Counted from the first letter of the stretch, positions 22,644-49,636 are shown. The stretch: DNA of 58,576 bases from Nanobdellota archaeon (GCA_030647965.1 JAUSIT010000038.1:1-58576), one strand, 5' to 3'. Made by a program: numbers and translations. The notes: generated from the letters alone by a model not told the origin.

Positions 22644-22760
22644 ATTTACTAATTATTGCACTTCGTGGGAATATTAAGTCGACTAAAAAGTTTTGCTCTT
22701 ATCTTTTTCGTTTCTATTTTAAGAGTAAAACTTTTTGCGTCTCCTAAAGATTTATTAATT
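22644..22760 (+). repeat. EL-B copy 1 (H52 module at 22685-22736)
   Basis: ATTTACTAATTATTGCACTTCGTGGGAATATTAAGTCGAC-T-[AAAAAGTTTTGCTCTT..AAGAGTAAAACTTTTT]-GCGTCTCCT...TTATTAATTATT. Confidence 0.7.
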
Positions 22761-22812
22761 ATTATTCTCTTTACTTATTAGATCATATTAATATATTTAT
22801 ATGTTTAAAATT

Positions 22813-22839
22813 AACAGATAATTTATAAATTCTAAAAAA
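22813..22839 (+). promoter_or_regulatory. Duplicated promoter-like box AACAGATAATTTATAAATTCTAAAAAA, ending 12 nt before the ATG
   Basis: TTTATAAA TATA-like core. A near-identical box sits at 23238-23264 with the same spacing to its ATG. Confidence 0.5.
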
Positions 22840-22850
22840 TTCAACATATT

Positions 22851-23072
22851 ATGAATGAAAAAAAAGTAAGCAATCTTGTTAAAGCATTAGAAGATGTAGG
22901 TATAGAACTTGGCGAGCCTATTGAATGTCAAATAAACCCTGAACACACTAAAGCTGTTACAGAATTTTTAAGAAAAATAGAAGACGCACATAAAAGAACA
23001 AGAAATTCTACAATAAAATTTGATAATTATTCAAATAATTCTTCCTATTATTGCACTTCGTCATTATACTAA
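22851..23072 (+). CDS. Hypothetical small protein; C-terminus encoded by EL-B copy 2
   Basis: 73-aa ORF. The last roughly 10 codons (..SSYYCTSSLY) read through the EL-B backbone TTATTGCACTTCGTCATTATACTAA. Confidence 0.4.
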   Translation: MNEKKVSNLVKALEDVGIELGEPIECQINPEHTKAVTEFLRKIEDAHKRTRNSTIKFDNYSNNSSYYCTSSLY

Positions 23073-23228
23073 GTCGCCTATAGGCTCCTAACTATTTATT
23101 AATTAAAATCCATTGAAAAAGTTTTGCTCTTATCTTTTTCGTTTCTATTTTAAGAGTAAAACTTTTTATCGCTAGACTATTATAAGATTCTTGCTTGTTA
23201 AAGCAAACTAATTCAATGCAGTTGTAAG
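23045..23228 (+). repeat. EL-B copy 2 (H52 module at 23116-23167, downstream position)
   Basis: The backbone stem closes directly as AAGTCGCC-TAT-AGGCTCCT. H52 interrupts the ATTG/TCGCTAGAC hairpin. 3' part: TTGCTTGTTAAAGCAAACTAATTCAATGCAGTTGTA. Confidence 0.7.
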
Positions 23229-23237
23229 TTTAATATT

Positions 23238-23264
23238 AACAAATAATTTATAAATTCTAAAAAA
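23238..23264 (+). promoter_or_regulatory. Duplicated promoter-like box AACAAATAATTTATAAATTCTAAAAAA
   Basis: One mismatch to 22813-22839. Ends 12 nt before ATG 23276. Confidence 0.5.
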
Positions 23265-23275
23265 GTTAGTATTTT

Positions 23276-23584
23276 ATGGCTGATCCAAATCAATTAGATT
23301 TATTTAGAGCAAGTGAAGAACTAAAAAGAGAGCAAAAAGAAGGAAGAAATCTTGCTAAATATACTTCTATAAAATATAAACTTCCTGGAAGAACTATATC
23401 TCCTGCAAAAATGAGTAAAGAAGGTTTACAAAATTGGATTGTAGAGTTTGCTAAACTAAATAATATTGACTTACCCAAGGGATTTTATGGAAGAAATAGA
23501 ACCCAAATATTAGGAATGTATAAAGGAATGCAAGAAACTTATAATTTTAGTGATAGAGATATATTACCTAAAAAGAATTATTAA
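23276..23584 (+). CDS. Hypothetical small basic protein
   Basis: 102-aa ORF behind the duplicated promoter box; no motif recognised. Confidence 0.45.
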   Translation: MADPNQLDLFRASEELKREQKEGRNLAKYTSIKYKLPGRTISPAKMSKEGLQNWIVEFAKLNNIDLPKGFYGRNRTQILGMYKGMQETYNFSDRDILPKKNY

Positions 23585-24523: not shown

Positions 24524-24547
24524 AAGATTATATTTAAAAAAGGATTA

Positions 24548-24628
24548 CGCCCAGACTCGGAATTGAACCGAGAAATCCTTGCGGACATGGTGTTCGAGAC
24601 CATTGCAGTACCATTGTGCCATCTGGGC
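24548..24628 (-). tRNA. tRNA-Ser (anticodon CGA), type II
   Basis: Reverse complement folds with acceptor GCCCAGA/TCTGGGC, D loop AATGGTA, anticodon stem ATGGT/ACCAT, loop CTCGAAC, a 14-nt variable arm (TCC-GCAA-GGA), T arm CTCGG-TTCAATT-CCGAG and discriminator G. Confidence 0.85.
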
Positions 24629-24662
24629 TTGAATTGTATTTAATTGATTTTGTTTTTAAAAG

Positions 24663-25160
24663 TTATTTAAACCACTTATAATATTCAAATTGTTCTTGCC
24701 CTTTATGAATAATTAATATTGGAAGTTGAGCTTTTAATCTTTGGTAATTCATTACAATTCTTCCTGTTCTTCCATTTCCATCTTCAAAAGGGTGAATTTT
24801 CAAAAGTTTTATATGGGCTTGTTTTATATTTTCTTCTTCTTTAGGGTTTGAGTATTCTTCAGCCCATTTTGAAAGTTCTTTTTGAATTAATTCAGGCTTT
24901 AGACATTCTTCATACCCTATTTGACTATTTCCAACATAAATTGGACACCTTCTAATTTTTCCTGCAATTAAAGGGTTTATTCTTTTCATTAAATTTTGAT
25001 GAATTTCTTTAATAAAAGGAATGTTTATAGGTTCTTTGTATTCTTTTGCAAAACACCATGTAGAAACAGCATCTTCTAATGCGCTGTTAGAATCTTCTTT
25101 TTCAATCCAGTTAGAATGTTGTAAAAATTCAAATTCTTGTTGAGATATATTAATTTTCAT
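24663..25160 (-). CDS. Fic/DOC family protein (short form)
   Basis: Canonical Fic motif HPFEDGNGRTGR. Confidence 0.8.
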   Translation of the reverse strand: MKINISQQEFEFLQHSNWIEKEDSNSALEDAVSTWCFAKEYKEPINIPFIKEIHQNLMKRINPLIAGKIRRCPIYVGNSQIGYEECLKPELIQKELSKWAEEYSNPKEEENIKQAHIKLLKIHPFEDGNGRTGRIVMNYQRLKAQLPILIIHKGQEQFEYYKWFK

Positions 25161-26111: not shown

Positions 26112-26223
26112 ATAAAATTTAAATGGAAACTGTTTATAAATGTTTCTGTAATAAATTCACTATATTAAAAAAACAATGTGTTATTCACATTTTTAAGTGT
26201 GAATTTAATAGATATTTGTTTTT

Positions 26224-26305
26224 AGGACCTCAATAATTATTAATTCTTGATGGCTTCAATAAGGTAAATTCTTGATAGTGCTCAAGATTTTATAATCTTA
26301 ATATA
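26224..26305 (-). repeat. Cluster of three degenerate HP-A hairpins
   Basis: GGACCTCAA..., GCTTCAA... and GTGCTCAAGATTTTATAATCTTAAT are reverse-orientation feet (GTGCTC/GGACCTC = reverse complement of GAGCAC/GAGGTCC). Confidence 0.45.
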
Positions 26306-26335
26306 CTCTGAAATTTAAACTAGTAAGCTCACAAT

Positions 26336-26510
26336 AAAAAATCCCAATCACAGCAAGTTGTGGGGTATTTTTTAAATGTCAAAAATTTACGAATTTTTGA
26401 GCACACTCCAAAACAAAATTCTTCAAGGAGAATTTTTCAAAGTTTTGGATGCCTCCAAATGGGAACGACGAAAATTGTAGCAAGCTAAGAAGTATAAGAC
26501 CCATTTGCAG
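26336..26510 (+). ncRNA. RNA-C copy 2
   Basis: Collinear with 8077-8236. The HP-A hairpin at 26376-26404 carries a compensatory G:C to A:T change. The terminal helix is CAAATGGG/CCCATTTG. Confidence 0.4.
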
Positions 26511-27299: not shown

Positions 27300-28517
27300 A
27301 TGGTGATAGGACTAGATAAAATATTCAATTCTGCAATAAATAACACTTTATTTAAAAATAAAGAGGTTTTACAGACAAATTATACTCCTGAGTCAATACC
27401 TCATAGGGATAAACAAATAGAACAGATTGCAGGGATATTAGCTCCTTTATTAAGAGGTGAAAGATGTAGTAATTTATTTTTATATGGTAAAACTGGCACA
27501 GGAAAGACTCTTTCAATGCAATATGTTCAAAATGAATTATTAAGAAAAGCAAAAGAAATGGGATTAGAATTAAGAATAATTTATTTAAATTGTAAATTAA
27601 AAAAAGTTTCAGACACAGAATATCGGATTTTAGCTGCTTTAATAGGTAAATTAGGTAAAGAGGTTGCTGCAACAGGATTACCTACTGATCAAGTTTATTC
27701 TAAGTTTATTGAGATAATCGATGAAAAAAAACAATTGGTTGTTATTATTTTTGATGAAATTGATCAGGCTATTAAAAAAATTTCAGATAGTTTTTTATAT
27801 AATTTAACTAGGTTAAATTCAGAACTATCTAAATCTCAAATAAGTATTATAGGTATTTCTAATGATATTACTTTTTTAGAAGATATAGATCCTAGAGTAA
27901 GAAGTTCTTTAGGTGAAGAAGAACTTGTATTTCCTCCTTATAATGCATTACAATTACAAGATATATTAAATGAAAGATGTGCTATTTCTTTTAAAGAAAA
28001 TGCTGTTGATGCAGGAGTTATTGCAAAATGTGCTGCTTATGCTGCAAGAGAGCATGGGGATGCAAGAAGAGCTTTAGATTTATTAAGAATTGCAGGAGAA
28101 CTTTCTGAAAGAGAGGGAAATTCTAATGTTGGATTGAAATATATTGATTTAGCTAATGATAAAATGGAAAAAGACAAAATTTTAGATATTGTTGAAACTC
28201 AACCTAAACAATTTCAACTTGTTTTATATGCTATTTCAGAATTAACAAAATCTCAAAAAAATAATAAAGAATTAAATAAATTTTTTACAGGAGATGTTTA
28301 TGATGTTTATAGGGATATTTGCATTAAAACAAAAAATGAGTATTTAACTCAAAGAAGAATTTCTGATATTATTGCTGAAATGGATATGTTGGGTTTGATA
28401 AATGCTAAGGTTATTTCAAAAGGGAGACATGGTAGAACTAGAGAAATAAAATTTGCAATACCTATAGGTTTATTTGATAAAATTGATGCTATTTTAAAAG
28501 AATCTTTAGGTTTGTAA
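27300..28517 (+). CDS. cdc6: Orc1/Cdc6 replication initiator
   Basis: Walker A GKTGTGKT, Walker B IIFDEID, sensor region GDARRALDLL and a C-terminal winged helix. Confidence 0.9.
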   Translation: MVIGLDKIFNSAINNTLFKNKEVLQTNYTPESIPHRDKQIEQIAGILAPLLRGERCSNLFLYGKTGTGKTLSMQYVQNELLRKAKEMGLELRIIYLNCKLKKVSDTEYRILAALIGKLGKEVAATGLPTDQVYSKFIEIIDEKKQLVVIIFDEIDQAIKKISDSFLYNLTRLNSELSKSQISIIGISNDITFLEDIDPRVRSSLGEEELVFPPYNALQLQDILNERCAISFKENAVDAGVIAKCAAYAAREHGDARRALDLLRIAGELSEREGNSNVGLKYIDLANDKMEKDKILDIVETQPKQFQLVLYAISELTKSQKNNKELNKFFTGDVYDVYRDICIKTKNEYLTQRRISDIIAEMDMLGLINAKVISKGRHGRTREIKFAIPIGLFDKIDAILKESLGL

Positions 28518-28539: not shown

Positions 28540-30117
28540 ATGGAAAAAACAATCTTAAAAATTTGTATGGAGAAAGGTTTTTTATTAGATAAAGAGATGT
28601 TAAACTTACTTTCTGGATTAGATGAAGAGAGTGCTAAAAAATTAATTGAAAGCATTGTCAGCTTAAAATTTGAAGAAAAGGTTATAACAAAGACTTTTTT
28701 TTCAAAAAATCTTCAAAAAATTCAAGAAGTTTTAATTGATGGAAAAAATAAGACAGTTATTGAAAATCTGTTTTTTAATTTAGGTTATTCTAGAACAGAA
28801 ATTGAACAAAAAGAAGTAAGAAAAGAAGAAAAAGTAGAATTGATTGAAGAAAAACAAGGAAAAGTTAAATTATTATCTGTTTCGTTTGTTCCTCCTAAAA
28901 AAGTATGTGTTGCTGATTTTGTAAAACATTATAGAACAAGGTATGAACAAATTAAAAAAATACTTTTAGAAAGAAATTTAGATAATTTAACTTCTTTAAG
29001 GAAAATAGGGGATAAAAAAGAAAATTATACTATTATTGCTTCTGTTTTTGATAAAAGAATAACTAAAAATAAAAATCTTTTACTTAATGTTGAAGATTCT
29101 AGTGGAAGGGCAAGAATTTTAATAAATGCTAATAAAAAAGAGGTTTTTGATAAGGCTAAAGATCTTTTATTAGATGATATTGTTGCATTTCAAGTTTCTG
29201 GAAATAAAGAATGGCTTTATGCTAATGATGTTATTTTTCCTGATTGTGTATTGCATGAAAAGAAAAAATATGAAAAAGATGAATGGGTTGCTTTTAGTTC
29301 TGATGCTCATATAGGTTCTACTATGTTTTTAGAGGAAAATTTTAAAAAATTTTTAGAATGGCTTAATGGTGAAAGAGGGGATGAAAAACAAAAAGAAATT
29401 GCTAAAAAAGTAAAATATTTATTTTTAGTTGGAGATTGCATTGATGGTGTGGGAGTTTATCCTGATCAAGAGAGATTTTTAAATATTAAAAATATTAAAG
29501 ATCAATATAATAAACTTTCAGAATTTTTAAGATATTTAAGAAAAGATATTAAAATTATTTTATCTCCTGGGCAGCATGATGGTGTGAGAGTTGCAGAGCC
29601 TCAACCAATTGTAGAAGAGTCTTGGGCTCCTGAATTACATAAAATAGAAAATTTGACTTTGGTTCCAAATCCTGCTTTAGTTGAAATAGATGGGGGATTT
29701 AAAATTTTAATGTATCATGGAGCAAGTATGCATAGTATTATTGATGAAATTGAAGATATAAGATTAAATTATAAATCAAATTCACCTACAAGGGTTGTAA
29801 AAGAAATGTTAAAAAGAAGACATTTAGCTCCGACTCATAGTTCTGTTACATATATTCCTAATGAAAAAGAAGATCCTTTGTTAATTACACAAATTCCTGA
29901 TATTGTTGCAACAGGGGATTTGCACAGGCCTGAAATTTCTATTTATAATAATATTTTATTAATTGCATCTTCTTGTTGGCAGTCAATTACTCCTTTTGAA
30001 GAAAAAGTAGGCAATCATCCTGACCCTTGCAAAGTTCCTTTATTTAATTTAAAGACAAGAGAAATTAAAATAATAGATTTTGGAGACACTAAAGAAGATA
30101 AAGGAGAGGAAAAATGA
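28540..30117 (+). CDS. DNA polymerase II (PolD) small subunit DP1
   Basis: OB-fold region followed by calcineurin-like phosphoesterase motifs (SDAHIGS, VGDCIDG, PGQHD, YHG, TGDLH). Confidence 0.85.
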   Translation: MEKTILKICMEKGFLLDKEMLNLLSGLDEESAKKLIESIVSLKFEEKVITKTFFSKNLQKIQEVLIDGKNKTVIENLFFNLGYSRTEIEQKEVRKEEKVELIEEKQGKVKLLSVSFVPPKKVCVADFVKHYRTRYEQIKKILLERNLDNLTSLRKIGDKKENYTIIASVFDKRITKNKNLLLNVEDSSGRARILINANKKEVFDKAKDLLLDDIVAFQVSGNKEWLYANDVIFPDCVLHEKKKYEKDEWVAFSSDAHIGSTMFLEENFKKFLEWLNGERGDEKQKEIAKKVKYLFLVGDCIDGVGVYPDQERFLNIKNIKDQYNKLSEFLRYLRKDIKIILSPGQHDGVRVAEPQPIVEESWAPELHKIENLTLVPNPALVEIDGGFKILMYHGASMHSIIDEIEDIRLNYKSNSPTRVVKEMLKRRHLAPTHSSVTYIPNEKEDPLLITQIPDIVATGDLHRPEISIYNNILLIASSCWQSITPFEEKVGNHPDPCKVPLFNLKTREIKIIDFGDTKEDKGEEK

Positions 30118-31105: not shown

Positions 31106-34100
31106 ATGGAACAGTATTTCAATGAACTTGTAAAAGATGTAAGAAAAGAGTATGCTATTGCAGAATTAGCAAAGCAAAAAGGGCTTGACCCTGTTGATAA
31201 AGTCGAAATTCCTTTAGCAATGTCTCTTGCTGAAAAAGTAGTTGGTTTAATTTCTACTATTTATCCTCAGTTGGAAAATAGCGGGGTTGCAAAAAGAATA
31301 ATTGAATTAGAAAATGAATATGGGCAATTAGATACTGCTGTTTCATTTAAAATTGCAGAAGAAGTTGCAAAAGAAAAATTTTGTAAATTTAAAAGTTTAC
31401 TAGAAGCAATTGATGCAGGAATAAGGGTAGGATTTTCATATACTACTTTAGGTGTTGTTTCATCTCCTATTGAAGGATTTACAGGAATAAAATTAGGCAA
31501 AACAAAAAATGGAGAAGAGTATTTTATTGCTTCTTTTTCAGGACCTATAAGAAGTGCAGGAACCACTGCTTCTTGTGTTGTTTTAATGTTAATTGATTAT
31601 TTAAGAGAACTTTTTGGATATGCAAAATATGACCCTGATGAAAATGAAATAAAAAGATATGTTATTGAAAATTTTGATTATCATGAAAGAGTTAATAATT
31701 TACAGTATTTACCTACTGAAGAAGAAATTATTTTTTTAGCTAAGAATTTACCTATTCAAGTTTCAGGAGAGCCAACTGAAAAAAAAGAGGTTTCAAATTA
31801 TAAAGACTTGCCTAGAGTTGAAACTAATTGTATTAGGGGAGGAATGTGTTTATGTTTTTCAGAAGGTCTTGCACAAAAAGCGCAAAAAGGATTAAGATTA
31901 TGGAAAGCAACACAGGCAAAAGGTTTTCAGATGACTGGTTGGGAATTTTTAAGTGAATATTTAATTATGCATAAAAAAAGAGAAAAAGGAAGTACTGATG
32001 CATCTCCAACTTATATTAAAGATTTAGTTGCAGGAAGGCCGGTATTTGGGCATCCTTCTCGTTCAGGAGCATTTAGATTTAGATATGGGAGAAGTAGAGT
32101 ATGTGGATTTTCTGCAGTATCTATACATCCTGCAACAATGGCAATTTCAAATAATTTTTTATCAACAGGAACTCAATTAAAAATTGAAAAACCTACTAAA
32201 GGGTGTGTTGTTACTTCTTGTGATTCAATTGATGGACCTATTGTAAAATTAAAAAATGGAAGTGTAAAAAGGCTGTATGATTTTGAAGAGGCAAAAAAAT
32301 TATATAAAGAAACAGAAGAAATAATTTATTTTGGAGATATTTTATTTCCTTTAGGAGATGTAATTAATAGAAATTATGAATTAATAAAATCTGCTTATGT
32401 TGAAGAGTGGTGGGGATTGGAATTAAAGAAAAAATTTGAAGAAAAAGGAGAAATTTTTAATTTAGATGTTTTTAAAGTTAGTTTAAATGAAGCAATAGTA
32501 TTTTCTGAAAATTATAAAATTCCTTTATATCCTAAATATATTTATTATTGGAGCCAGATAAAAACAGAAGATTTTTTTTGGCTAATGGAATGGCTTCAAA
32601 ATGCAGAATGGAGAGAAAAATTAATATTACCTTATGAGAAATCTTCAAGAGATAAGTTTAAACAGGCAAAAAGAGCTTTGGAATTATTAGGAGTTGAGCA
32701 TGAAGTTATTTTTGATAATGTTATTATTAATGATGGGAAGGCATTTTTAATTAATTTAGGGATTGATTTTTTTGGTGAGAATTTTAAAGAAAGTGTGAAG
32801 AAAATTATTGAAGAAAATAAAGATAAAACCAGTGTTTTGGAGATTATTAATAATATTTCTAAATTTAAAATAAAAGATAAGGCAGGAGTTTTTATTGGAA
32901 CAAGAATGGGTAGGCCTGAAAAAGCTAAATTAAGAAAATTAATAGGAAGTCCTAATGTTTTATTTCCTATTGGGGAACAAGGGGGGAGATTTAGAAGTTT
33001 AAATGAAGCTGCTGAAATTGGTTTTATTAAAGGAAATTTTCCAATAAATTATTGTGAAACTTGTAAAAAAAATACTATCTATAGAACTTGTGAAAGTTGT
33101 GGAAATAAAACAAATAAGTTAAGAATATGTCCTGAATGCAGAAAAACTTTTGAAGGATTAGTTTGTCCTGAACATAATTTAGGAAAAGGTTTTGATAATC
33201 AGAGAATAGATAGCAAGTATTATCTTTCAAAAGCTTCTAAATTTTTAGAAGCAACAACTATTCCTGAATTAATAAAAGGAGTAAGAGAAACTTTTAGTGA
33301 AGATCATGATTTTGAGCATATTGAAAAAGGAATTTTAAGAGCAAAGTATAATTTATGTGTTAATAAAGATGGAACTATTAGATATGATGCAACAGAACTT
33401 CCTATAACTCATTTTAAACCTAAAGAAGTTGCAGTGGGTTTTGAAAAATTAAAAGAAATAGGTTATATTAAAGATATTTTTGATAAAGAATTAATTAGTG
33501 ATGAACAAATTTTAGAATTAAAACCTCATGATATTATTCTTCCTGCATGTCCTGAGACTAAGGATGAAAGGGGAGATAGTGTTTTTTTAAATATTGCTAA
33601 TTTTTTAGATGAATTACTTGAAAAATTTTACAAATTGCCAAAATATTATAATTTGAAAACAAAACAAGATTTAGTTGGGCAGTTAGTTGTTTGCATGGCT
33701 CCTCATAATTGTGCTGGGGTTATTGGGAGAATCATTGGATTTTCAAAAACCCAAGGATTATTGGCTTCTCCTTATATGCATGCTGCAATGAGAAGAGATT
33801 GCGTTTATCCTACTACAAATTTTGTTTATTCTGAAAACGGAGAAACAAAGATTTGTGAGATTGGTGATTATGTTGAAGAATTAATTAAGAATAATGCAAA
33901 AACAAAAATAATAGATTCTTATAATACTTTAAAAATTAATATTAATAAAGAAATTTATGCATTTGGAGTAAATCCTATAAGCAAAAAACTTACCAAGAAG
34001 AAAATAAAATATTTTATTAAAGGAATGCCTCCTGAAAAATGGGTTAAGATTAAAACGTGCAGTGGGAGGGAACAGATTATGACTCCCAGGCATAAATTTA

Positions 34101-36064
34101 TTTATTTAGATAAAAATATGAATTTTAAAGTAAAAACTGCAAGTGAAATAAAAAAAGGAGATAAAATTGCAGTTTTAAAAAAGTTTGATATAAAAAATAG
34201 ACAAAAAGAAATTTTTTTACCGAAAGTATTGTCCGAAAGTGTTCCTTTTAAATTTCAAAAGCAAATAAGAATATGCAATTCAGCTGGCTTTTTTAAGAAG
34301 ATTGTGGAAAAAATAGGAATTGTAAAATTAAGAAGCATAATTTCTGATTTGCCTAAAAATTTATTTGACTGGTATAATATTGTCCCCCTAAGTCATATTA
34401 AACTTTTAGAAGATCATGGATTTTTTTGCTGGAAAGATTTACCTAAAAATGCTTGTATGAGAGGAGCTTTTAATAATCATAAATGGGAACTTAAATTGAA
34501 AATAAGCCCTGAAATGGCAAGAGTTTTAGGGTATTATTCTGCTGAAGGATATTGCAGAAAAACAAAAACAGTATCTCAAGTTTGTTTTAGAATAATGGAC
34601 TCAAATCAGCAGAAAGATTTGATAAGATGCATTAAGTCTTGCTTTGGAATTAAACCTAGTTGTGGAGAAAATAATACTAAAATAAGTATTTGCAATCAGA
34701 TTATTTATTTTTTATTTAAATATTCTTTTAATGCAGGAGAAGGAGCTTATCAAAAAAAGGTGCCAAATATTCTTTTTAATCTTGAACCTAATATTGTTAA
34801 GGAATATATTTCTACTTATTTTAATGGAGATGGTACAATTATAAACGGGAGAAAAAAAGCTATTTGTTTTTACTCTGTTAGCAGAAAAATGCTAGATAGT
34901 TTGGCACTTTTAATTTCTAAATTTGGAATTTTTGGCAGGTTTTTAAAAACAAAAGAAAGATTGCCTGGAAAAAAAGTTCTGGAAAGATATAAAGAACTTA
35001 ATATTAAACCTAAAAAACATATTTTAAATCATCTTGTTTTTTCAGGAGCAGATTTTTATAATTTAAGCCAGCTAATCAAGAAAAAAGTTAATAAGAGAAA
35101 CAATCTTTTTGAAGTTGAAAAATCTAATCTTTCTAGAAAGATTTTGTTTGAGAATCATTTTTATAAATTAGATTCAATAGGAGATGTTTTTGTAGATATT
35201 ATTAAAGAAGTTGAATCTTTTAAAGATAATAATCACTCATATTGTTTTGAAGTTGATTGGAAGTCTGAAGAAGATAAAAATGTTTTATGGGGAGAACAAA
35301 TTATTAATGCTAGGTGCGATGGAGACGAGGCCGCAGTCATGATGTTATTAGATGTTTTAATAAATTTTTCAAGAAAATTTTTGCCTTCACATAGAGGGGG
35401 AACTCAGGATGCTCCTTTGGTTTTAAATTCAAAAATAAGTGCAGGAGAGGTTGATGATCAGATTTTAGATTTTGAATTATGTGCTCAATATCCTTTAGAG
35501 TTATATGAATTTTCAGAACAAGGAAAGCACTCTTCAACAGTTTCTATAGAAACTGTTAAAACTAGATTAAAGAAAAATGAAGATCCTTTTGTAAAAATAG
35601 GTTTTACACACAATACTGATGATTTTAATCTAGGAGTTATTAATTCTTCTTATAAGACATTACCTACTATGAAGGATAAGGTTTTTAATCAAATGGATTT
35701 ATGCAAAAAATTAAGAGCTGTTGATGCAGCAGATGTGGCAAGATTAATTATTGATAGGCATTTTATTAGAGATATTAGAGGTAATTTAAGAAAGTTTTCA
35801 CAACAAGAGTTTAGATGTGTAAAATGCAATGAAAAATTTAGACGACCCCCTATGTCTGGGTGTTGCTCTAAATGCGAAGGAAAAATTATATTTACTATTT
35901 CAGAAGGTTCTATTATAAAATATTTAGAACCTGCTTTAGATTTGGCAAATAATTTTGCTATTCCTGCTTATACTAAGCAAGGGCTTGAACTTGCTAAAAT
36001 TTATATTGAAAGTATTTTTGGAAAAGAACAAGACAAACAGATTGAATTAAAAAAATGGTTTTAA
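31106..36064 (+). CDS. DNA polymerase II (PolD) large subunit DP2, with an intein
   Basis: 1652 aa. The conserved catalytic-region sequence ..SPYMHAAMRRD / CDGDEAAVMMLLD is interrupted by about 505 aa. C-terminal Zn finger CVKCNEKFRRPPMSGCCSKCEG. Confidence 0.9.
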   Translation: MEQYFNELVKDVRKEYAIAELAKQKGLDPVDKVEIPLAMSLAEKVVGLISTIYPQLENSGVAKRIIELENEYGQLDTAVSFKIAEEVAKEKFCKFKSLLEAIDAGIRVGFSYTTLGVVSSPIEGFTGIKLGKTKNGEEYFIASFSGPIRSAGTTASCVVLMLIDYLRELFGYAKYDPDENEIKRYVIENFDYHERVNNLQYLPTEEEIIFLAKNLPIQVSGEPTEKKEVSNYKDLPRVETNCIRGGMCLCFSEGLAQKAQKGLRLWKATQAKGFQMTGWEFLSEYLIMHKKREKGSTDASPTYIKDLVAGRPVFGHPSRSGAFRFRYGRSRVCGFSAVSIHPATMAISNNFLSTGTQLKIEKPTKGCVVTSCDSIDGPIVKLKNGSVKRLYDFEEAKKLYKETEEIIYFGDILFPLGDVINRNYELIKSAYVEEWWGLELKKKFEEKGEIFNLDVFKVSLNEAIVFSENYKIPLYPKYIYYWSQIKTEDFFWLMEWLQNAEWREKLILPYEKSSRDKFKQAKRALELLGVEHEVIFDNVIINDGKAFLINLGIDFFGENFKESVKKIIEENKDKTSVLEIINNISKFKIKDKAGVFIGTRMGRPEKAKLRKLIGSPNVLFPIGEQGGRFRSLNEAAEIGFIKGNFPINYCETCKKNTIYRTCESCGNKTNKLRICPECRKTFEGLVCPEHNLGKGFDNQRIDSKYYLSKASKFLEATTIPELIKGVRETFSEDHDFEHIEKGILRAKYNLCVNKDGTIRYDATELPITHFKPKEVAVGFEKLKEIGYIKDIFDKELISDEQILELKPHDIILPACPETKDERGDSVFLNIANFLDELLEKFYKLPKYYNLKTKQDLVGQLVVCMAPHNCAGVIGRIIGFSKTQGLLASPYMHAAMRRDCVYPTTNFVYSENGETKICEIGDYVEELIKNNAKTKIIDSYNTLKININKEIYAFGVNPISKKLTKKKIKYFIKGMPPEKWVKIKTCSGREQIMTPRHKFIYLDKNMNFKVKTASEIKKGDKIAVLKKFDIKNRQKEIFLPKVLSESVPFKFQKQIRICNSAGFFKKIVEKIGIVKLRSIISDLPKNLFDWYNIVPLSHIKLLEDHGFFCWKDLPKNACMRGAFNNHKWELKLKISPEMARVLGYYSAEGYCRKTKTVSQVCFRIMDSNQQKDLIRCIKSCFGIKPSCGENNTKISICNQIIYFLFKYSFNAGEGAYQKKVPNILFNLEPNIVKEYISTYFNGDGTIINGRKKAICFYSVSRKMLDSLALLISKFGIFGRFLKTKERLPGKKVLERYKELNIKPKKHILNHLVFSGADFYNLSQLIKKKVNKRNNLFEVEKSNLSRKILFENHFYKLDSIGDVFVDIIKEVESFKDNNHSYCFEVDWKSEEDKNVLWGEQIINARCDGDEAAVMMLLDVLINFSRKFLPSHRGGTQDAPLVLNSKISAGEVDDQILDFELCAQYPLELYEFSEQGKHSSTVSIETVKTRLKKNEDPFVKIGFTHNTDDFNLGVINSSYKTLPTMKDKVFNQMDLCKKLRAVDAADVARLIIDRHFIRDIRGNLRKFSQQEFRCVKCNEKFRRPPMSGCCSKCEGKIIFTISEGSIIKYLEPALDLANNFAIPAYTKQGLELAKIYIESIFGKEQDKQIELKKWF
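33800..35314 (+). mobile_element. Intein with LAGLIDADG homing-endonuclease domain inside DP2
   Basis: Starts at Cys (CVYPTTNF..), block B-like TPRHKF, LAGLIDADG motifs LGYYSAEGY and YFNGDGT, and ends ..GEQIINAR immediately before CDGDE. Confidence 0.8.
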
Positions 36065-40178: not shown

Positions 40179-40246
40179 ACTAATATTATCTAGTTAATTT
40201 TGTTTTTAAAGTTTGTTAGATTGTTAAGGAAACCTATTAAATTGAG

Positions 40247-40429
40247 ATTTACTATTATTATACTTCGTAGGAATATTAAGTTGCCTAGAAAAAGTTTTAC
40301 TCCCCTATCTTGCGTACTCATTGCAAGAGCAAAAGTTTTTGCGGCTCCTTTCGATTAATTAATATAAATTGTCGCTAGACAATTATAATATTCTTACTTG
40401 TTAAAGCAAACTATTTCAACGCAGTTGTA
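40247..40429 (+). repeat. EL-B copy 4 (H52 at 40289-40340)
   Basis: GATTTACTATTATTATACTTCGTAGGAATATTAAGTTGCC-TAG-[H52]-GCGGCTCCT...ATTGTCGCTAGACAAT...CTTGTTAAAGCAAACTATTTCAACGCAGTTGTA. Confidence 0.7.
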
Positions 40430-40445
40430 TGTCTCTATAGATTTT

Positions 40446-41651
40446 TTAACTTAAAAAAGGCAGATAAAAAATCATTGTTGGGACTAGCAGACAGCCCATT
40501 AAAAGACCTTTTCTTATATTTAGATAGTTACAAGTTAATCCTAGGCAAGTTGAAACTAGAAAGACTAAAAATCCTAAAAGTCCTGAAAAAATTAAGACAA
40601 TTATACTTAATAAAAATAAAACTGCTAATGATATTTTTGAATAGTTTATTTTATTTATGTTTTTTATAAAGATTTTGGAAATTTTTAATCCTAGAAAGAA
40701 AACTATCACTGAAGTAATTAGTATTATTAATAAGATGTAAAATATATTTTCTAAAGATAGGAGCATTATTTCATTTATTGCATAGGCAGAGCCTGTTCTT
40801 GATTTTTGAATTAAATATAAAACTACAAATGAAAGAGACATAACTAGTATGTTTACTGAGCCAAGAAGCATTAGAAATTGTTTTCTTGATAGTTTTCCTA
40901 TTATTCCTGAACCAATAATTGCTGCTTGTGATGAGCCTAGTCCTGGTAAAAACGAACATAAAGGTGAGGAAAATAAACTTGCAAGAGCTGGTTTTATTAG
41001 TTCTTTTTTATTTATTATTATTTTTTCTATTTTTTGTTCTGGTAGTTTTGTTTTTTGTGAAAGAGAATAAATTAAAGAAGATGAGCCAAATAAACCTGTT
41101 AATAAAGGAAGAAGAGGCTGTTTTATAGGAAGATTTAAAGTAGATAGTCCTAAAAATCCTGCTAAAATAAAAATAATTAGTGCTAGAACTTTGTTAGTAT
41201 TTTCTTTTAAAATTAGAAAAATGCAAGCCCAGATTAAAATCCAAAACATCATTTTTTGAAAAAAAGGATAAATATTTGGAAGTGTGTAAATAAATAAAGG
41301 AACTAAAAAAATGAGTAAAAATAGTCCTATTAAACATCCTATTAGTGTTAAAAAAACAGCTTCATGGCCTTTTCCTTGAAGAAGCATTTCTTGGCCAGGC
41401 ATTATACTTAAAACAGTGTCTTCATTTGGAGCTCCTAAAAAAATAGAAGGTATAAAATCAATAAATGTGTGTGTTATTGACATTGAAACAATAAAGATTA
41501 CTAGAATAAAGGGAGAGGCAAAAGAAAGAAAAAAAGAAATAGATGAAATTAATAAAACTCCTACCAGATTTATATGAATTCCTGGCATTAGGCCTGTGAA
41601 AGTTCCTGCTAAGATTCCTAGGAATAGTGCGAGAATGATTTCAAATAACAT
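40446..41651 (-). CDS. Polytopic membrane protein, TctA/DUF112-like
   Basis: About 10 or more hydrophobic helices. N-terminal GTFTGLMPGIHINL resembles the DUF112/TctA motif. Confidence 0.55.
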   Translation of the reverse strand: MLFEIILALFLGILAGTFTGLMPGIHINLVGVLLISSISFFLSFASPFILVIFIVSMSITHTFIDFIPSIFLGAPNEDTVLSIMPGQEMLLQGKGHEAVFLTLIGCLIGLFLLIFLVPLFIYTLPNIYPFFQKMMFWILIWACIFLILKENTNKVLALIIFILAGFLGLSTLNLPIKQPLLPLLTGLFGSSSLIYSLSQKTKLPEQKIEKIIINKKELIKPALASLFSSPLCSFLPGLGSSQAAIIGSGIIGKLSRKQFLMLLGSVNILVMSLSFVVLYLIQKSRTGSAYAINEIMLLSLENIFYILLIILITSVIVFFLGLKISKIFIKNINKINYSKISLAVLFLLSIIVLIFSGLLGFLVFLVSTCLGLTCNYLNIRKGLLMGCLLVPTMIFYLPFLS

Positions 41652-44774: not shown

Positions 44775-46372
44775 ATTTTAAAATATTTACTATAATCCAA
44801 AAAAATTTTCTTATAATTTTCAATTCTAAACTATCTTCAATTATGCTTATTTTAGGCCCTATTTTACTGATACTTTTATCATATCCTCTTTTACAAAATA
44901 CTTCTATTAAAAATGTAAATGCAGGAATTTATTCTAGCGTAGATGAAGATTTTACAAAAAATTTTATTGATAAACTTCATCAAAATTCTTTTATAGTAGA
45001 ACGAAAGTATTCGTTAGAATCCTGTAAGCAGGATGTTATAGATTCTGATAAAGATGTTTGTATAGAACTTCAAAGAGAGGCAGGAGGCAATAATCTTAAT
45101 AAGGTTTTTAATAATAATCTTGGATATAGGATAATTCTTTATGTTGATTATTCAAATCAGAGAGTAGTATGGCAAATTATAGCAAGTATACAATCTATTG
45201 TAACTAAAGAATCTGATAATATTAAAAATGATATTATTGTAAATATTCATGATAATCTTAATGAGGTTATTCAATTTTCTGATAGTAATAGTAAATATGT
45301 AGATAATTCGATTATTATTATAGATAACATAAATACTGACTTAAATGATTTAGATAGTGATTTGGGTTCTATAAAAGATGATGCTCATAAGGCTAAATAT
45401 TCTATTATAGAATTAAATAATGACTTGGCAGTGCTATTGCCTTATGCGGCTTCTATAAATAATTCTTTTATGTATGATAAACTTAAAAAAATAAATGATA
45501 GTGCTTCACAAGCAGCTAATTATTCAAATAAAGTTGAAGAAAAAGTAAATTTAATAAATTCTAAAAGTAATATTCCTAATTCAATTAATGGCTTAAATAA
45601 TTTAAAGACTGCTCTTCTAGCTGTAAGAAGTTCTTATGATACTAAACAAAGAGAATTAGAGGATTTAAATAAAATTGATTTAAATAAACTTACAGAACCA
45701 TTGCCATTATCTTATCAATCGGTAATTGATGGAGGAAATTATGCTACACACACTAATCTTAATTTTTTAGATTATTTTTTCCCTACTTTTTTAATAATTT
45801 ATCTGCTTTTTGTATCAATTATATTTTCATCGGTTTTAACTATTAGAGAAAGAATTTCTGGGGCATATTTAAGAAATATAACAAGTGAAGTTTCAAATAT
45901 TAAGTTTATAGTTGGAAATTTTATTACTTTTTTCTTATTTGTCTTATTTCAAATCTTTTTAGTGATTTATATTAGTCATTTCTTTTTGAATATAAATATT
46001 CTTTCAAATCTTTTTCCTTTGTTGATCATGGTTTCTTTTTCAATAACTATTTTTGTTTTAATAGGTATGATTATAGGTTATTATTTTAATTCTCAAGAAT
46101 CTGTTACATTTTCTTCAATTTTTATTTCTATTTTATTATTAATATTTTCTTCTTTAATTACCCCTAAAGAATTTCTTCCCCAATTTTTTTCAAATTTAGT
46201 GTCTTTTATTCCAACAACCTTTTTTGAAACTAAATTTATTTCTTTAATAGTATTTGGCTCTTCATTAAAAATTGGAATTTATGATATTTTATTTTTAGTA
46301 GGTAGTATTTTTGTATTATCCGTATTACTTTTCTTTGCTTATAAAAAATCTAAGTATTTTGAGATGAAGTAG
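44771..46372 (+). CDS. ABC-2 type permease with a large extracytoplasmic domain
   Basis: ATGA overlap with the ATPase gene. One N-terminal TM segment, a roughly 300-aa loop, then five to six C-terminal TM helices. Confidence 0.6.
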   Translation: MNFKIFTIIQKNFLIIFNSKLSSIMLILGPILLILLSYPLLQNTSIKNVNAGIYSSVDEDFTKNFIDKLHQNSFIVERKYSLESCKQDVIDSDKDVCIELQREAGGNNLNKVFNNNLGYRIILYVDYSNQRVVWQIIASIQSIVTKESDNIKNDIIVNIHDNLNEVIQFSDSNSKYVDNSIIIIDNINTDLNDLDSDLGSIKDDAHKAKYSIIELNNDLAVLLPYAASINNSFMYDKLKKINDSASQAANYSNKVEEKVNLINSKSNIPNSINGLNNLKTALLAVRSSYDTKQRELEDLNKIDLNKLTEPLPLSYQSVIDGGNYATHTNLNFLDYFFPTFLIIYLLFVSIIFSSVLTIRERISGAYLRNITSEVSNIKFIVGNFITFFLFVLFQIFLVIYISHFFLNINILSNLFPLLIMVSFSITIFVLIGMIIGYYFNSQESVTFSSIFISILLLIFSSLITPKEFLPQFFSNLVSFIPTTFFETKFISLIVFGSSLKIGIYDILFLVGSIFVLSVLLFFAYKKSKYFEMK

Positions 46373-46694
46373 TTATTTTATCAGCAATTATTTGTAAATC
46401 TCCTTTGTATGTTTCTATCTTTCCATTAATTCGAATAGTTTGATTTTCTTTTAGGTTTAGTATTTTGTTTGTGAAAATAATTATTGAAATATTGGAATTT
46501 TGAGGAGTTATAATTATTGAACTTGATTTGTATTCTATTTTTTGAATTGTTATGTCTGTTGAAATTCTTTCTTCAATATTCTCTTTGGTTATTTTATTAA
46601 TATCTATTTGTTTTGGCTCTAAATTTTGAGCAAGAAATAAAAGGAAGATTATTCCTATTATTGAGATTAAAAAAAGAATTTTGCTTTGTTCCAT
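46350..46694 (-). CDS. Membrane-anchored OB-fold-like protein
   Basis: N-terminal TM segment. C-terminal ..NQTIRINGKIETYKGDLQIIADKI resembles the OB-fold (tRNA_anti-like) pattern. Confidence 0.45.
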   Translation of the reverse strand: MEQSKILFLISIIGIIFLLFLAQNLEPKQIDINKITKENIEERISTDITIQKIEYKSSSIIITPQNSNISIIIFTNKILNLKENQTIRINGKIETYKGDLQIIADKITTSSQNT

Positions 46695-46707
46695 GTTGAA
46701 TAATAAT

Positions 46708-46840
46708 TATTTACTATCTTCTCTAAGAAGATATAATGCACTTCAAAAAGTTTTGCTCTTCTATCCCTCGTTACTTATTGTAAGAGCAAAACTTTTTCGT
46801 GGGAATACTAAGTCGCCTGTCGGCTCCTAACTTTTATTAT
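46708..46840 (+). repeat. EL-B copy 5 (H52 at 46745-46797, upstream position)
   Basis: ..ATAATGCACTTC-[H52]-CGTGGGAATACTAAGTCGCC-TGT-CGGCTCCTAAC. H52 lies between GCACTTC and GTGGGAATA, and the backbone stem closes directly. Confidence 0.7.
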
Positions 46841-46957
46841 CTTGGATTGATATTGCAGTGATAAAACTTTTAACATTATTAATGGATAGTTAATCTTCGC
46901 CAGAAGATTCCATTAATCTTATGATAATATAATAATTTTCCATTTATCTAACCAATC

Positions 46958-47899
46958 TTATTTTGTCTGAAACTCAATTATATCTTTGTCTTTTAATACA
47001 TGACTTAGGCCTACTTCCTGTCCGCCAAACTTAGATGATGGGCCCCAGATTCTAGCTCTTTTGATTTTTTTTGAAAATCCTTTTAGTATTTTTTCTGCAA
47101 CATCTTTTATTGTTGAGTTTTCTTTCATAATCATTGGTTCTTTACTTACTTCTTTTTTTGGCTCTTTTGTGTAAATTCTTATTATTGTAAATGTTTTGAA
47201 TATTTTTTCTTTTAATTCAGCAAGATTTTCATGGTTTATTGAGGAAAATAAGATAAAACTATGTTTTTTTGATTTAAGGGTTTCTGTGATTTTTCTTTTT
47301 TCATTTTCATTAAATAAATCTGTTTTATTAAATAAAATAATTATTTTTGCTCTTGTTTTTTGCAAAAATTGTTCTGATTGTTTTATTTGGTCAAAATTAT
47401 TAATAATTAAAAGAATTGTATCTGTTGTGTTGATTATTCCTCTATCTGTGTTTGGAAAAGGAGGCATATCTACTAATTGAATTTTTAAATCTTCATAATT
47501 CATCATACCTATTTTAGGGATAGTTGTTGAATAAGGATGTTCTGTAACTTGTAATTTTAATCCTGTTAGTAAATTAAAAACAGAAGTTTTTCCTGTATTT
47601 GGGAAACCTAAAATTAGTGCTTGCATTTCTGATTTTTTTATTCCTACTTTTGTTGATTTTGAAGATTTTGAAGTTTTTTCAATTTTTTCAACAAGTTTTT
47701 TATACCTTAGTCTTAAAGCAGCTCTTAGATTCTCACCGCCTTTATGAGCTGGGGCATAAGAAATCATTTTTTCAAGTGCTAAAAGTTTTTCATCTAGTGT
47801 TTTTGTTTGCAGGTATTCTTTTTCAGCATGACCATATTCAGGGCTTGCATTAGTTGTCATATGTTTTTTAAAGGAATTTAACTTAAAAAATCTATGCAC
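46958..47899 (-). CDS. DRG/Obg-family GTPase with a TGS domain
   Basis: G1 GFPNTGKTS, G4 NKTD, C-terminal TGS-like region ..IWGPSSKFGGQEVGLSHVLKDKDIIEF. An alternative start is Met14 at 47860. Confidence 0.75.
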   Translation of the reverse strand: MHRFFKLNSFKKHMTTNASPEYGHAEKEYLQTKTLDEKLLALEKMISYAPAHKGGENLRAALRLRYKKLVEKIEKTSKSSKSTKVGIKKSEMQALILGFPNTGKTSVFNLLTGLKLQVTEHPYSTTIPKIGMMNYEDLKIQLVDMPPFPNTDRGIINTTDTILLIINNFDQIKQSEQFLQKTRAKIIILFNKTDLFNENEKRKITETLKSKKHSFILFSSINHENLAELKEKIFKTFTIIRIYTKEPKKEVSKEPMIMKENSTIKDVAEKILKGFSKKIKRARIWGPSSKFGGQEVGLSHVLKDKDIIEFQTK

Positions 47900-47936
47900 T
47901 TAGGAGTTTTATTTTATAACTTAAATTTTTTAGAAT

Positions 47937-48137
47937 TTAATAAACATCTGAAGAAGTTTGATCTGTATTAGGTTTTTTATCTGTATTGGGTTTTTCGTTT
48001 GGAGAATCATATTTATTATACTTTGCAGTCATTTGTTCTAATACTCCTTTTGTTCTAAAATCTATATCAGACATTTCAGATAATGCATAACGTTCTGCCA
48101 TTCTTGCATGATATAAATAGTTACCTAAATTTGTCAT
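47937..48137 (-). CDS. Hypothetical small protein
   Basis: 66-aa ORF; no motif. Confidence 0.3.
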   Translation of the reverse strand: MTNLGNYLYHARMAERYALSEMSDIDFRTKGVLEQMTAKYNKYDSPNEKPNTDKKPNTDQTSSDVY

Positions 48138-48296
48138 TCTTTTTTTTAGAAATCTTTATTTATAATGTTTTAGATAAACTAATATAGTATTTTACACTCC
48201 TCAAATTATTAATTCAATTAAATCTTAGAATTTTTTATTAAATGTTCTTGTTCTCTTTAACAAATACCTTAAAAACTTGTTATTTCTATTTTTTTT

Positions 48297-48965
48297 ATGA
48301 AACTAGGAGTTTTATTTTCAGGTGGAAAAGATAGTATGTATGCTGCTTATTTGGAAAAGAAAAAAGGCAATGAATTAACTTGCTTAATTTCAATATATTC
48401 TGAAAATAAAGAGAGTTTTATGTTTCATACTCCTTCTATTGAAAAAGTTGAAAAACAAGCAGAGGTTATGGAGATTCCTTTAGTTATTTGGAAAACAAAA
48501 GGAGAAAAAGAAAAAGAGCTTAAAGATTTAGAAGAAGCTATAAAACATGCTAAAGAGAAGTATAAAATAGAAGGGATTGTAACTGGGGCTTTACGAAGTG
48601 TGTATCAAACAGAAAGAATTCAGAAAATCTGTGATAAATTAAAATTAAAATGTATTAATCCTTTATGGCAGAAAGATGAGTTTGAATATTTAGATGAGCT
48701 TTTGAAAAATAAGTTTAAGGTAGTTATTGTTGGAGTTTTTGCTTATCCTCTAAATGAAAAATGGCTTGGAAGAGAGATTGATAAAAAGTTTATTGGAGAT
48801 GTTAGAAAGCTATATGAAAAATATAAAATTCATCCAGCCGGGGAGGGGGGAGAATTCGAGTCATTTGTTTTAGATTGTCCTTTATTTAAAAGGGCTTTGA
48901 AAATAACTGATAAAAAAATATCTGGGGCTGGAAATAGCTGGAAAATTGAGATAGAGGTTGAATAA
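48297..48965 (+). CDS. PP-loop ATPase of the MJ0570 / diphthine-ammonia ligase (Dph6-like) family
   Basis: PP-loop LFSGGKDS and the EGGEFES motif. Confidence 0.75.
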   Translation: MKLGVLFSGGKDSMYAAYLEKKKGNELTCLISIYSENKESFMFHTPSIEKVEKQAEVMEIPLVIWKTKGEKEKELKDLEEAIKHAKEKYKIEGIVTGALRSVYQTERIQKICDKLKLKCINPLWQKDEFEYLDELLKNKFKVVIVGVFAYPLNEKWLGREIDKKFIGDVRKLYEKYKIHPAGEGGEFESFVLDCPLFKRALKITDKKISGAGNSWKIEIEVE

Positions 48966-48988
48966 TCTCTTAATAATTATGTTTTTTA

Positions 48989-49114
48989 ATGTCAGAAATT
49001 AAACTGCATCATTTATGATGTAGACGTAACCTTAGTGCGTTAATTTCTGAGCATCCTAAAAACAAGTGCCAATCAAACCCACACTTTTAAGTGTGGGTGG
49101 CACATTGTTTTTTT
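48989..49114 (+). repeat. HP-A composite repeat (long foot hairpin, second hairpin, T7 run)
   Basis: ATGTCAGAAATTAAACTGCATC...GCGTTAATTTCTGAGCATCCTAAAAACAAGTGCCAATCAAACCCACACTTTTAAGTGTGGGTGGCACATTGTTTTTTT. Confidence 0.7.
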
Positions 49115-49372
49115 GATACAATTAGCTTTTATATTGCTGATTTCATTTGCAGTAGCTTTGGCAAAATTCTTTAAGTCTTTTACATCTTCAGCAGTACTAT
49201 CAAGTTTATGCATTGCCCACCCCGCTAAATATACTACACCAAAAAGAGGGGCATATTCTAATAATAATGGTGTATTAATAACTCCTAGGGTTTTTAATAT
49301 AATCCAGATTAAAATTCCTCCTAAAACAACCCATGCCAATATATCCCAGGCATTTATTCCTCTTTTATTCAT
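49073..49372 (-). CDS. Small membrane protein; C-terminus encoded by repeat sequence
   Basis: Two TM helices. The last roughly 14 codons (KKTMCHPHLKVWV) lie in the second hairpin of the repeat at 49073-49114. Confidence 0.45.
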   Translation of the reverse strand: MNKRGINAWDILAWVVLGGILIWIILKTLGVINTPLLLEYAPLFGVVYLAGWAMHKLDSTAEDVKDLKNFAKATANEISNIKANCIKKTMCHPHLKVWV

Positions 49373-49441
49373 AAAAATATATGTCTTTGAGATTTATATA
49401 TTTTATACTTTCTCTATCTGTTAAATAAATTGACGAACTTT

Positions 49442-49636
49442 ATTTTTACTGATTATTGCACTTCGTTAAAATACTAAGTCGACTTGAAAAAGTTTTACTC
49501 TTCTATCTTGCGTACTCATTGCAAGAGCAAAACTTTTTGCGTCTCCTAATTAGTTATTAATTAATTACTTCTTGATTGTCGCTAGACAATCTTAATATCC
49601 TTTGCTTATTAAAACAAACTATTTCAACATAGTTTT
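49442..49636 (+). repeat. EL-B copy 6 (H52 at 49487-49538)
   Basis: ATTTTTACTGATTATTGCACTTCGTTAAAATACTAAGTCGAC-TTG-[H52]-GCGTCTCCT..TTATTAATTAATT..ATTGTCGCTAGACAAT..TTGCTTATTAAAACAAACTATTTCAACATAGTT. Confidence 0.7.

Follow-up and report, generated by a model that had tools for sequence, protein, structure and literature searches.

The window analysed here is a 58,576-nucleotide stretch of DNA from a Nanobdellota archaeon (GCA_030647965.1, JAUSIT010000038.1:1-58576), the term meaning the whole stretch at its full length, and our subject is EL-B, a repeat present in six copies between its genes. The DNA is archaeal and strongly AT-rich (25–29% GC), and it encodes an Lhr-type helicase, ribosomal proteins and other housekeeping genes; the genes that flank the EL-B copies are likewise housekeeping genes. 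An earlier description made from the letters of the window alone (the sequence-only reading) had proposed six same-strand, intergenic copies of a modular element. We recovered all six at or around the coordinates it gave, each on the + strand, by mismatch-tolerant motif searches, nhmmer and a covariance model. No seventh copy was found in the window by motif search, by nhmmer with a backbone profile from which a nested hairpin (HP, described below) had been stripped, or by the covariance model. The backbone consensus of the sequence-only reading was accurate; its boundaries were too narrow, with flank alignment extending the homology by ~25 nt on either side to give a unit of ~180–245 bp. The backbone contains five small hairpins, H1 to H5: CAC-TTC-GTG (stem 1), NNN-TGGC-NNN (stem 2), ATTGTC-GCTA-GACAAT, TTGCTT-GTTA-AAGCAA and CAAC-GCA-GTTG. 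The copies, c1 to c6, lie as follows, with c1, c4, c5 and c6 given from one terminal inverted repeat (TIR) to the other.

22623-22815 (TIR to TIR), + strand: EL-B copy c1, with an internal deletion (52 bits in cmsearch)
~23040-23240, + strand: EL-B copy c2, 5' end missing
37662-~38000, + strand: EL-B copy c3, 5' end diverged (GTTGGGAA) and 3' end degenerate; stem 2 is ACC/GGT
40223-40450, + strand: EL-B copy c4, full length (126.8 bits); 5' TIR GTTAAGGAAAC
46695-46874, + strand: EL-B copy c5, with an internal deletion
49420-49662, + strand: EL-B copy c6, full length (115 bits); ends GTTAAATAAAT...GTTTACTTAAC

The copies are packed tightly against their neighbours, so that "intergenic" holds approximately. 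Copy c1 starts 2 nt past the stop codon of the Metallophos gene and keeps H1, H2, the TTATTAA core and the 3' end, without H3–H5. A predicted 73-aa open reading frame (ORF; 22851-23072) reaches 33 nt into c2, and the stop codon of TctA (40446-41651, minus strand) falls in the last bases of c4. Copy c5, also without H3–H5, has an additional small hairpin (ATCTTCT-CTA-AGAAGAT) and abuts the ATG of a minus-strand gene (46350-46694), and the ATG of an M16 peptidase gene is 30 nt downstream of the end of c6. There are no ORFs within the copies. The repeat had been called very dense for an archaeal genome. Six copies in 58.6 kb correspond to ~102/Mb, which is not exceptional against a published census of 105–146 MITEs (miniature inverted-repeat transposable elements) per Mb in DPANN genomes, the highest among archaea, and the ~100/Mb of EL-B matches the density reported for a Woesearchaea genome (PMC11602168). 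The shared orientation is not a significant signal either, because five independent insertions would give it with a probability of ~1/16 and a related contig, L037, carries oppositely oriented copies. A replication-linked strand bias was considered and set aside: one orientation is kept on either side of a putative origin next to Cdc6 (~26–27 kb), and GC skew is monotonic across the window and therefore allows no conclusion on such a bias.

TIRs had been reported as absent. We found 11-bp TIRs, GTTAAGTAAAC...GTTTACTTAAC, that match at 11/11 positions in a related copy on contig L023, 9/11 in c6, 8/11 in c4 and 7/11 in c1. The unit starts GT(T/A)AAG/ATAAAC and finishes GTTTACTTAAC; with the outer bases its limits are (T)GTTAAGTAAAC...GTTTACTTAAC(A). 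When the element is taken as T-GTTAA...TTAAC-A, with TG...CA ends, it is flanked at the same offset by ACTAA/ACTAA in L023 and by AATAA/AATAA in L030-E1, the first of two copies on contig L030. The second, L030-E2, has a TTTAT duplication at a fitting offset, in low-complexity sequence. A chance 5-nt flank match at this base composition has a probability of ~0.002–0.004 per copy, and 25 offsets were tried; even so, chance is an unlikely source of two clean 5-bp target-site duplications (TSDs) at one offset. The window copies look old, in that their TSDs are no longer visible, c1 and c5 are internally deleted, c2 is 5'-truncated and the 3' end of c3 is degenerate.

Relatives on other contigs place EL-B at unrelated loci. 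A backbone profile search returned the two L030 copies (330-509 and 1048-1231), both full length and free of HP; in the L023 copy (2216-2449) a degenerate HP occupies the site that HP has in c2, and there are further copies on L015, L037 and L044. The gene neighbours differ between the window, L023 and L030. On L037 two EL-B left halves lie in opposite orientations within 1.9 kb, the left half is linked to different right halves in L026, L027 and L037, and HP is reversed relative to the TTATTAATTAA/H3 modules in L024 and L044. The covariance model also matches a distant left half, with stem 2 GCT-TGGC-AGC, in L002, a contig of a Woesearchaeota metagenome-assembled genome (MAG). The closest relative compared, L050 (DP2 63% identical, GTPase 54%), retains the order Lhr-Metallophos...PRC-Cdc6-DP1-DP2...TctA...GTPase-diphthamide synthase; neither EL-B nor HP is present in its syntenic 25 kb, and its intergenic spaces at the matching places are short or absent. 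Because L050 is distant, the comparison says no more than that these loci do not have the elements as conserved features.

The surroundings of the 3' end recur. In four cases the end lies 8–12 nt upstream of a TATA-like box (TTTATAAA, TTTAAATA, CTTTAAAAAA), namely c1 (22816-22850), c2 (23241-23275), L030-E1 (L030:510-550) and L023 (2450-2499), with the downstream gene on the same strand (a tRNA in L023). Past the element end c1 and c2 have 24 nt in common, and the ORFs that follow are unrelated. There may be an insertion preference just upstream of promoters.

Each window copy carries a separate 52–53-nt perfect hairpin, HP, which the sequence-only reading overlooked. It has the form A5GTTTTGCTCTT-loop-AAGAGCAAAACT5, in the window AAAAAGTTTT[G/A]CTCTT, a 20–21-nt loop and AAGAG[C/T]AAAACTTTTT, and it occupies three backbone sites: the stem-2 loop (c1, c3, c4, c6), the hairpin of ATTG and TCGCTAGAC (c2) and the position after CACTTC (c5).

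22685-22736: HP of c1, in the stem-2 loop, GAC-T[HP]GC-GTC
23116-23167: HP of c2, inside H3, ATTG-[HP]-A-TCGCTAGAC
37849-37900: HP of c3, in the stem-2 loop
40289-40340: HP of c4, in the stem-2 loop, with three arm mismatches
46745-46797: HP of c5, inside H1, between CACTTC and GTGGG
49487-49538: HP of c6, in the stem-2 loop, GAC-TTG[HP]GC-GTC

Comparison with L030 and L023 gives the empty stem-2 site of HP-free relatives as GAC-TG/GC-GTC, the slash marking the junction. Where HP sits elsewhere, stem 2 is closed by a tetraloop (GCC-TATA-GGC in c2, GCC-TGTC-GGC in c5). Between c1 and c2, whose HPs stand at different places in the backbone, HP identity is 100%, and the backbones agree at only ~71–75%. 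A pattern scan of species-representative genomes and Joint Genome Institute (JGI) metagenomes found HP at five loci in three MAGs (two Woesearchaeota, one Nanoarchaeia) and on 38 sediment or groundwater contigs, which after removal of duplicates left ~40 unrelated flanking contexts in Woesearchaeota, Pacearchaeota-like and Nanoarchaeia DNA. Across these HP is 52–60 bp long, with invariant 16-bp arms and a variable centre of 20–30 nt. In 40 contexts the flanking bases were G..G 16 times and C..C 13 times, and in no case complementary. The one stem position that varies had, with the copies oriented, A:C seven times and G:T six times, and thus neither strand was favoured. In identical flanks (GCAAGCTGCGGG...TATTAAACCC) the loop is reverse-complemented between L002 (2909-2965, 6585-6641) and L004 (7065-7121), which indicates that recombination between the arms probably inverted the centre, or that HP inserted there a second time. 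Because of the ~40 contexts, the loop inversion, the lack of strand bias and the identical HPs at different sites, HP is an independent DNA-level element, still moving or being homogenised.

Other accounts of HP were tried and rejected. Its arms do not look like the ends of a larger insertion sequence (IS), with no solo arms pairing over longer distances in ~330 kb, and no protein neighbour recurs beyond contig overlaps within the same genome and unrelated genes (AbiEii, Lrp/AsnC, transporters). An archaeal intron would have a bulge-helix-bulge at its junctions, that is, two 3-nt bulges on opposite strands with a 4-bp helix between them. At the HP junctions inspection shows either no loop or a symmetric internal one, with T/TAG/TTG opposite GC, and HP also lies, in both orientations, in mosaics that do not look transcribed.

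HP also recurs at tRNA genes. On four contigs an intact tRNA is followed, 50–110 nt on, by an incomplete second copy of its T-arm and acceptor 3' strand, with 9–12 nt of trailer. At five loci with such a duplicated tRNA 3' fragment (L011:6894-7150; L040:2304-2500; L046:480-700, minus strand; L047:1480-1700, minus strand; L018:200-345), the insertion point of HP is precisely the junction of T-stem and acceptor strand. Ahead of the partial T-arm stands its reverse complement; in L018 there is a tRNA-Ser 3' half with HP and no intact tRNA upstream. These loci could be the att-site remnant of tiny integrative elements, or could reflect a structural target preference of HP.

The covariation on which the sequence-only reading had rested its proposal of a selected fold is real. 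The two halves of the 3-bp stem 2 change together within the window (GAC/GTC in c1 and c6, GCC/GGC in c2, c4 and c5, ACC/GGT in c3), and with L002 counted there are six Watson-Crick versions (GAC/GTC, GCC/GGC, ACC/GGT, GAT/ATC, ACT/AGT, GCT/AGC) and two A·C intermediates. We aligned 13 HP-stripped copies and imposed the five small hairpins and the pairing of the TIRs, a structure derived from the same sequences, with HP stripped by hand and rows that are related to one another. In this alignment 92.4% of cells were standard pairs, and 15 pairs had double-sided changes, compared with 5.5 ± 1.6 in shuffles (0/500 reached 15) and 2–5 in slid controls. Double-sided changes fell in 3/3 pairs of stem 1, 3/3 of stem 2, 5/6 of H3, 2/6 of H4 and 1/4 of H5, so that compensatory changes affect 14/22 pairs of the internal hairpins, with several in each of four of the five. 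Since covariation exceeds both the shuffles and the slid controls, the copies are not simply decaying duplications, and that part of the earlier claim stands.

The folds are weak as RNA. HP-free L030-E1 folded barely better than shuffles (z = −1.83 on the + strand and −0.75 on the − strand), and the z-scores of −2.75 and −4.49 for c6 arise from HP and the TIRs. Departures from pairing are a mixture of G·U and A·C types, giving no strand signal. The Rfam check that had been proposed, run on all copies and the HP-free relatives, gave no match at gathering or E-value thresholds; in the window only tRNA matched, and at an E-value limit of 10 the only matches over the copies were two sub-threshold ones to miRNA models, at E ~0.2, on the HP palindrome. 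Given the TIRs, the relatives' TSDs, the absence from L050, the unrelated loci, the nested insertions, the weak fold and the missing strand signal, the other part of the claim, that EL-B is an RNA family and not a mobile element, is unsupported.

We therefore read EL-B as a family of non-coding, non-autonomous transposable elements of ~180–245 bp, MITE-like in character, with a probability of roughly 0.6. Several of the traits that define a MITE are found in it: it is short, non-coding and multi-copy, has TIRs, and occupies dispersed, non-homologous loci while being absent from L050. The weight of evidence favours a new MITE family in a lineage already rich in MITEs, with the nested HP and a third repeat inside it. 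Under this interpretation a DDE-type transposase, supplied in trans, would have inserted the EL-B copies. HP has entered EL-B on three or more separate occasions, with no clear duplication of the target. The hairpins are kept paired by compensatory change, most likely because folded single strands are needed in mobilisation or in read-through transcripts, or because pairing is renewed by quasi-palindrome (template-switch) correction; the pairs may also serve a function of read-through RNA, or its stability. Neighbouring genes may plausibly be affected: the A5-hairpin-T5 would be expected to stop archaeal transcription both ways, and AT-rich TATA-like boxes would lie beside gene starts.

Several observations weigh against this interpretation. 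No 5-bp duplication is visible at window copies c1, c4, c5 or c6, and c1 has an AGAT repeat only, at a different offset; the evidence for TSDs consists of two clean copies and one ambiguous one from two contigs. Neither the window nor ~265 kb of fetched loci yielded an autonomous IS or transposase with the EL-B TIRs. Invariance is greatest in the internal TTAATTAA palindrome and not at the ends. The modules follow one another differently from copy to copy (L037, L026, L027, L024, L044), which fits recombination-driven mosaics no less than transposition. Compensatory change in several internal mini-hairpins fits a structured RNA or ssDNA (single-stranded DNA) better, and to our knowledge ordinary MITEs are not expected to show it. 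The EL-B hairpins may have a role as structured RNA or ssDNA.

A view in line with the sequence-only reading, in which EL-B copies are dispersed structured small-RNA genes or cis-acting modules of untranslated regions and HP is a tolerated or functional extension of a stem, draws on this pairing evidence: compensatory changes occur in all five hairpins (at least three pairs each in H1–H3), the six versions of stem 2 keep a TGGC-type loop, L015 has H3 swapped for a different 6-bp stem with the GCTA loop kept, and the backbone is well conserved across contigs from different organisms. We consider it unlikely. There is no Rfam match; the HP-free backbone has the modest z-scores given above (−1.8 and −0.75), its 3-bp stems being too weak alone; mismatch types are mixed and favour neither strand; and the aligned flanks show no conserved upstream promoter. 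EL-B is also missing from syntenic L050, half of the window copies are truncated or internally deleted, HP and other repeats interrupt them at different places, and the copies have TIRs and TSDs. A new structured RNA family is thus less likely than a new MITE family with a nested mini-palindrome. Less likely again is that EL-B, and especially HP, is an ssDNA hairpin element moved by an HUH/Y1 transposase, as in palindrome-associated transposable elements (PATEs) of IS200/IS605 type or repetitive extragenic palindromes (REPs) with RAYT, or by another structure-specific enzyme. An enzyme reading folded ssDNA would account for the stem covariation, HP is a pure hairpin with invariant arms that inserts without target duplication beside a preferred base (the G..G and C..C contexts), and the six window copies share one orientation. 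PATE and REP elements lack TIRs and TSDs, have subterminal hairpins and are accompanied by a Y1 transposase in the genome. EL-B, in contrast, has TIRs and, in its relatives, 5-bp duplications, absent in IS200/IS605 elements, and genes for Y1_Tnp, RAYT and TnpB are absent from the window and from the vicinity of every copy; only HP on its own fits the lack of a TSD. Orientation speaks against this mode too, being the same on both sides of the putative origin and opposed within 1.9 kb on L037.

The least likely of these alternatives makes EL-B a set of intergenic regulatory cassettes, with promoter and terminator modules that recombine; segmental duplication and gene conversion, not transposition, would have spread them, and their service to the flanking genes would have kept them. 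HP is shaped A5-hairpin-T5 and oligo-T is an archaeal termination signal; the 3' ends lie just upstream of same-strand TATA-like boxes in the four cases given above, c5 abuts a start codon and c6 ends shortly before one; the 24 nt common to c1 and c2 are consistent with a local duplication; and module order is variable. Yet the flanked genes lie in every orientation, including two divergent intergenic regions, the HP arm sequence is identical across distant lineages, which termination does not require, related copies have TSDs, and L050 has these genes expressed without the element. Integron cassettes were also considered and rejected. The EL-B ends GTTAAGT and ACTTAAC (22623-22633 and 49652-49662, and relatives) match the integron words GTTRRRY and RYYYAAC, and in a head-to-tail junction would make a 14-bp perfect palindrome, ACTTAACGTTAAGT. 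An attC site has the order RYYYAAC ... GTTRRRY and belongs to a unidirectional cassette array beside intI/attI, whereas EL-B has the two words the other way round (GTTAAGT...ACTTAAC) and lacks a cassette array; the genes between its copies are housekeeping genes of either orientation, and the only tyrosine recombinase is a XerA equivalog 10 kb away.

Prokaryotic MITEs, of which the Sulfolobus SM1–SM4 elements are archaeal examples, resemble EL-B in being small, non-coding, multi-copy and intergenic, with TIRs and no transposase of their own, and probably in having short TSDs in well-preserved copies. Unlike them, EL-B has no known parent IS, has lost its TSDs in the window, contains five compensating mini-hairpins and is best conserved at an internal motif (TTAATTAA). 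Bacterial interspersed mosaic elements (BIMEs) and REPs of enterobacteria and BOX elements of Streptococcus pneumoniae are, like EL-B, modular, hairpin-rich intergenic units whose modules vary in number and order. BIME/REP and BOX elements are thought to fold in transcripts, and REP/BIME are linked to RAYT transposases. EL-B differs from them in having no sequence relation, TIRs and TSDs, an archaeal host and no RAYT seen. The Correia elements of Neisseria and the Rickettsia palindromic elements are small and palindromic or TIR-bounded, insert near or in genes and can supply promoters or terminators; HP is comparable to them in being found inside other repeats and tRNA-derived fragments, and unlike them it is much shorter (52–60 bp), has no TA or clear duplication, and has arms conserved across order-level DPANN lineages. 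The PATEs derived from IS200/IS605 are hairpin-dependent and, as HP does, insert free of target duplications; EL-B differs from them by its TIRs and TSDs, by the lack of a conserved 4–5-nt target 5' of the element, and in that neither TnpA(Y1) nor TnpB was found.

Beyond EL-B itself, HP and the EL-B mini-hairpins might represent ultra-small, DPANN-wide hairpin transposons that a structure-specific enzyme would move in folded, single-stranded form. We regard this as a rather doubtful proposal; it would account for arms that do not vary, insertion without target duplication, the G/G or C/C junctions, the stem compensation and the insertion in tRNA fragments. DPANN archaea have tiny, compact genomes, and in such compact genomes the HP and EL-B hairpins may double as bidirectional terminators. 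The window gives a concrete view of DPANN MITE density, with a ~200-bp TIR element, a 52-bp palindrome and a third repeat in one copy, and with repeats lying tight against core genes of the Cdc6/PolD region, at their start and stop codons. HP arms that are identical across Woesearchaeota, Pacearchaeota-like archaea and Nanoarchaeia make HP a candidate marker for horizontal exchange between these lineages, or for a mobilising enzyme that they have in common. Very short stems that evolve by compensation within a selfish repeat offer a useful test case for selection on folded nucleic acid versus mutational palindrome repair, and elements like EL-B can pass for new RNA families in genome scans.

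In the search for a mobilising enzyme, we agree with the sequence-only reading that no transposase lies beside any copy, and we found none elsewhere in the window. The window and the surroundings of HP in the fetched loci contained no integrase other than the XerA equivalog, no reverse transcriptase, no Y1/HUH protein and no TnpB. Three window proteins were considered as transposase candidates, and none is a transposase.

12005-12853, minus strand: XerA-equivalog tyrosine recombinase (243.7 bits, cut-off 220)
11713-12021, minus strand: HNH endonuclease adjoining the XerA equivalog
4532-5059, minus strand: 175-aa protein with an N-terminal zinc ribbon, then only the 'Recombinase' domain of large serine recombinases, without a catalytic domain

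A weak TnpB zinc-ribbon match proved to be a generic zinc ribbon. A phage or plasmid origin was rejected too, with no megablast match in phages and neither HP nor EL-B in viral contigs.

The host of EL-B is a low-GC DPANN archaeon of Pacearchaeota/Woesearchaeota type. The best-matching relatives of DP2 carry the labels Pacearchaeota or Nanoarchaeota archaeon with a top identity of 63%, and the genome is, as far as such matches tell, without a close sequenced relative in the collections searched. The remaining features mentioned here lie as follows.

27300-28517: Cdc6/Orc1 gene
28540-30117: gene for DP1 of DNA polymerase D (PolD)
31106-36064: DP2 gene with an intein (LAGLIDADG domain)
24548-24628, minus strand: tRNA-Ser(CGA)
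24663-25160, minus strand: Fic/DOC gene
37708-37828, + strand: hairpin-rich fragment of a third repeat family, ~120 nt, nested in c3 just after H1

The segment 22621-25200, between the Metallophos gene and the genes for a 143-aa and a PRC-barrel protein, holds c1 and c2, four small ORFs without a Pfam match, the tRNA-Ser(CGA) and the Fic/DOC gene, and nothing in L050 corresponds to it. Its appearance is that of a small accessory islet beside a tRNA. A second Fic gene lies at 56736-57692. ARAGORN placed a tRNA-Leu(AAG) at 1962-2045, with a perfect GGTTCGATTCC T-loop, which the Rfam tRNA model did not report at its gathering score; predicted ORFs overlap it, so one of these annotations is wrong. 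In L050, a gene for a DNA polymerase III alpha of bacterial type (PHP, DNA_pol3_alpha; L050:15032-18160), unusual in an archaeon, is directly 3' of DP2.

The third-family repeat nested in c3 recurs at 26220-26284 (minus strand) and 53370-53403 and is linked to repeats at 8104-8209, 26367-26472, 49054-49118, 53396-53460 and 57718-57782. Its modules are TCAAGAATT...AATTCTTGA, GAGGTCCTAAAAACAA, CCACAC-TTTTAAG-GTGTGG and CACATTGTTTTTTTGATA, with sites also at 26150-26472 (minus strand) and 53340-53460. The 1.2-kb spacer upstream of cdc6, the putative origin region, contains two members of the family.

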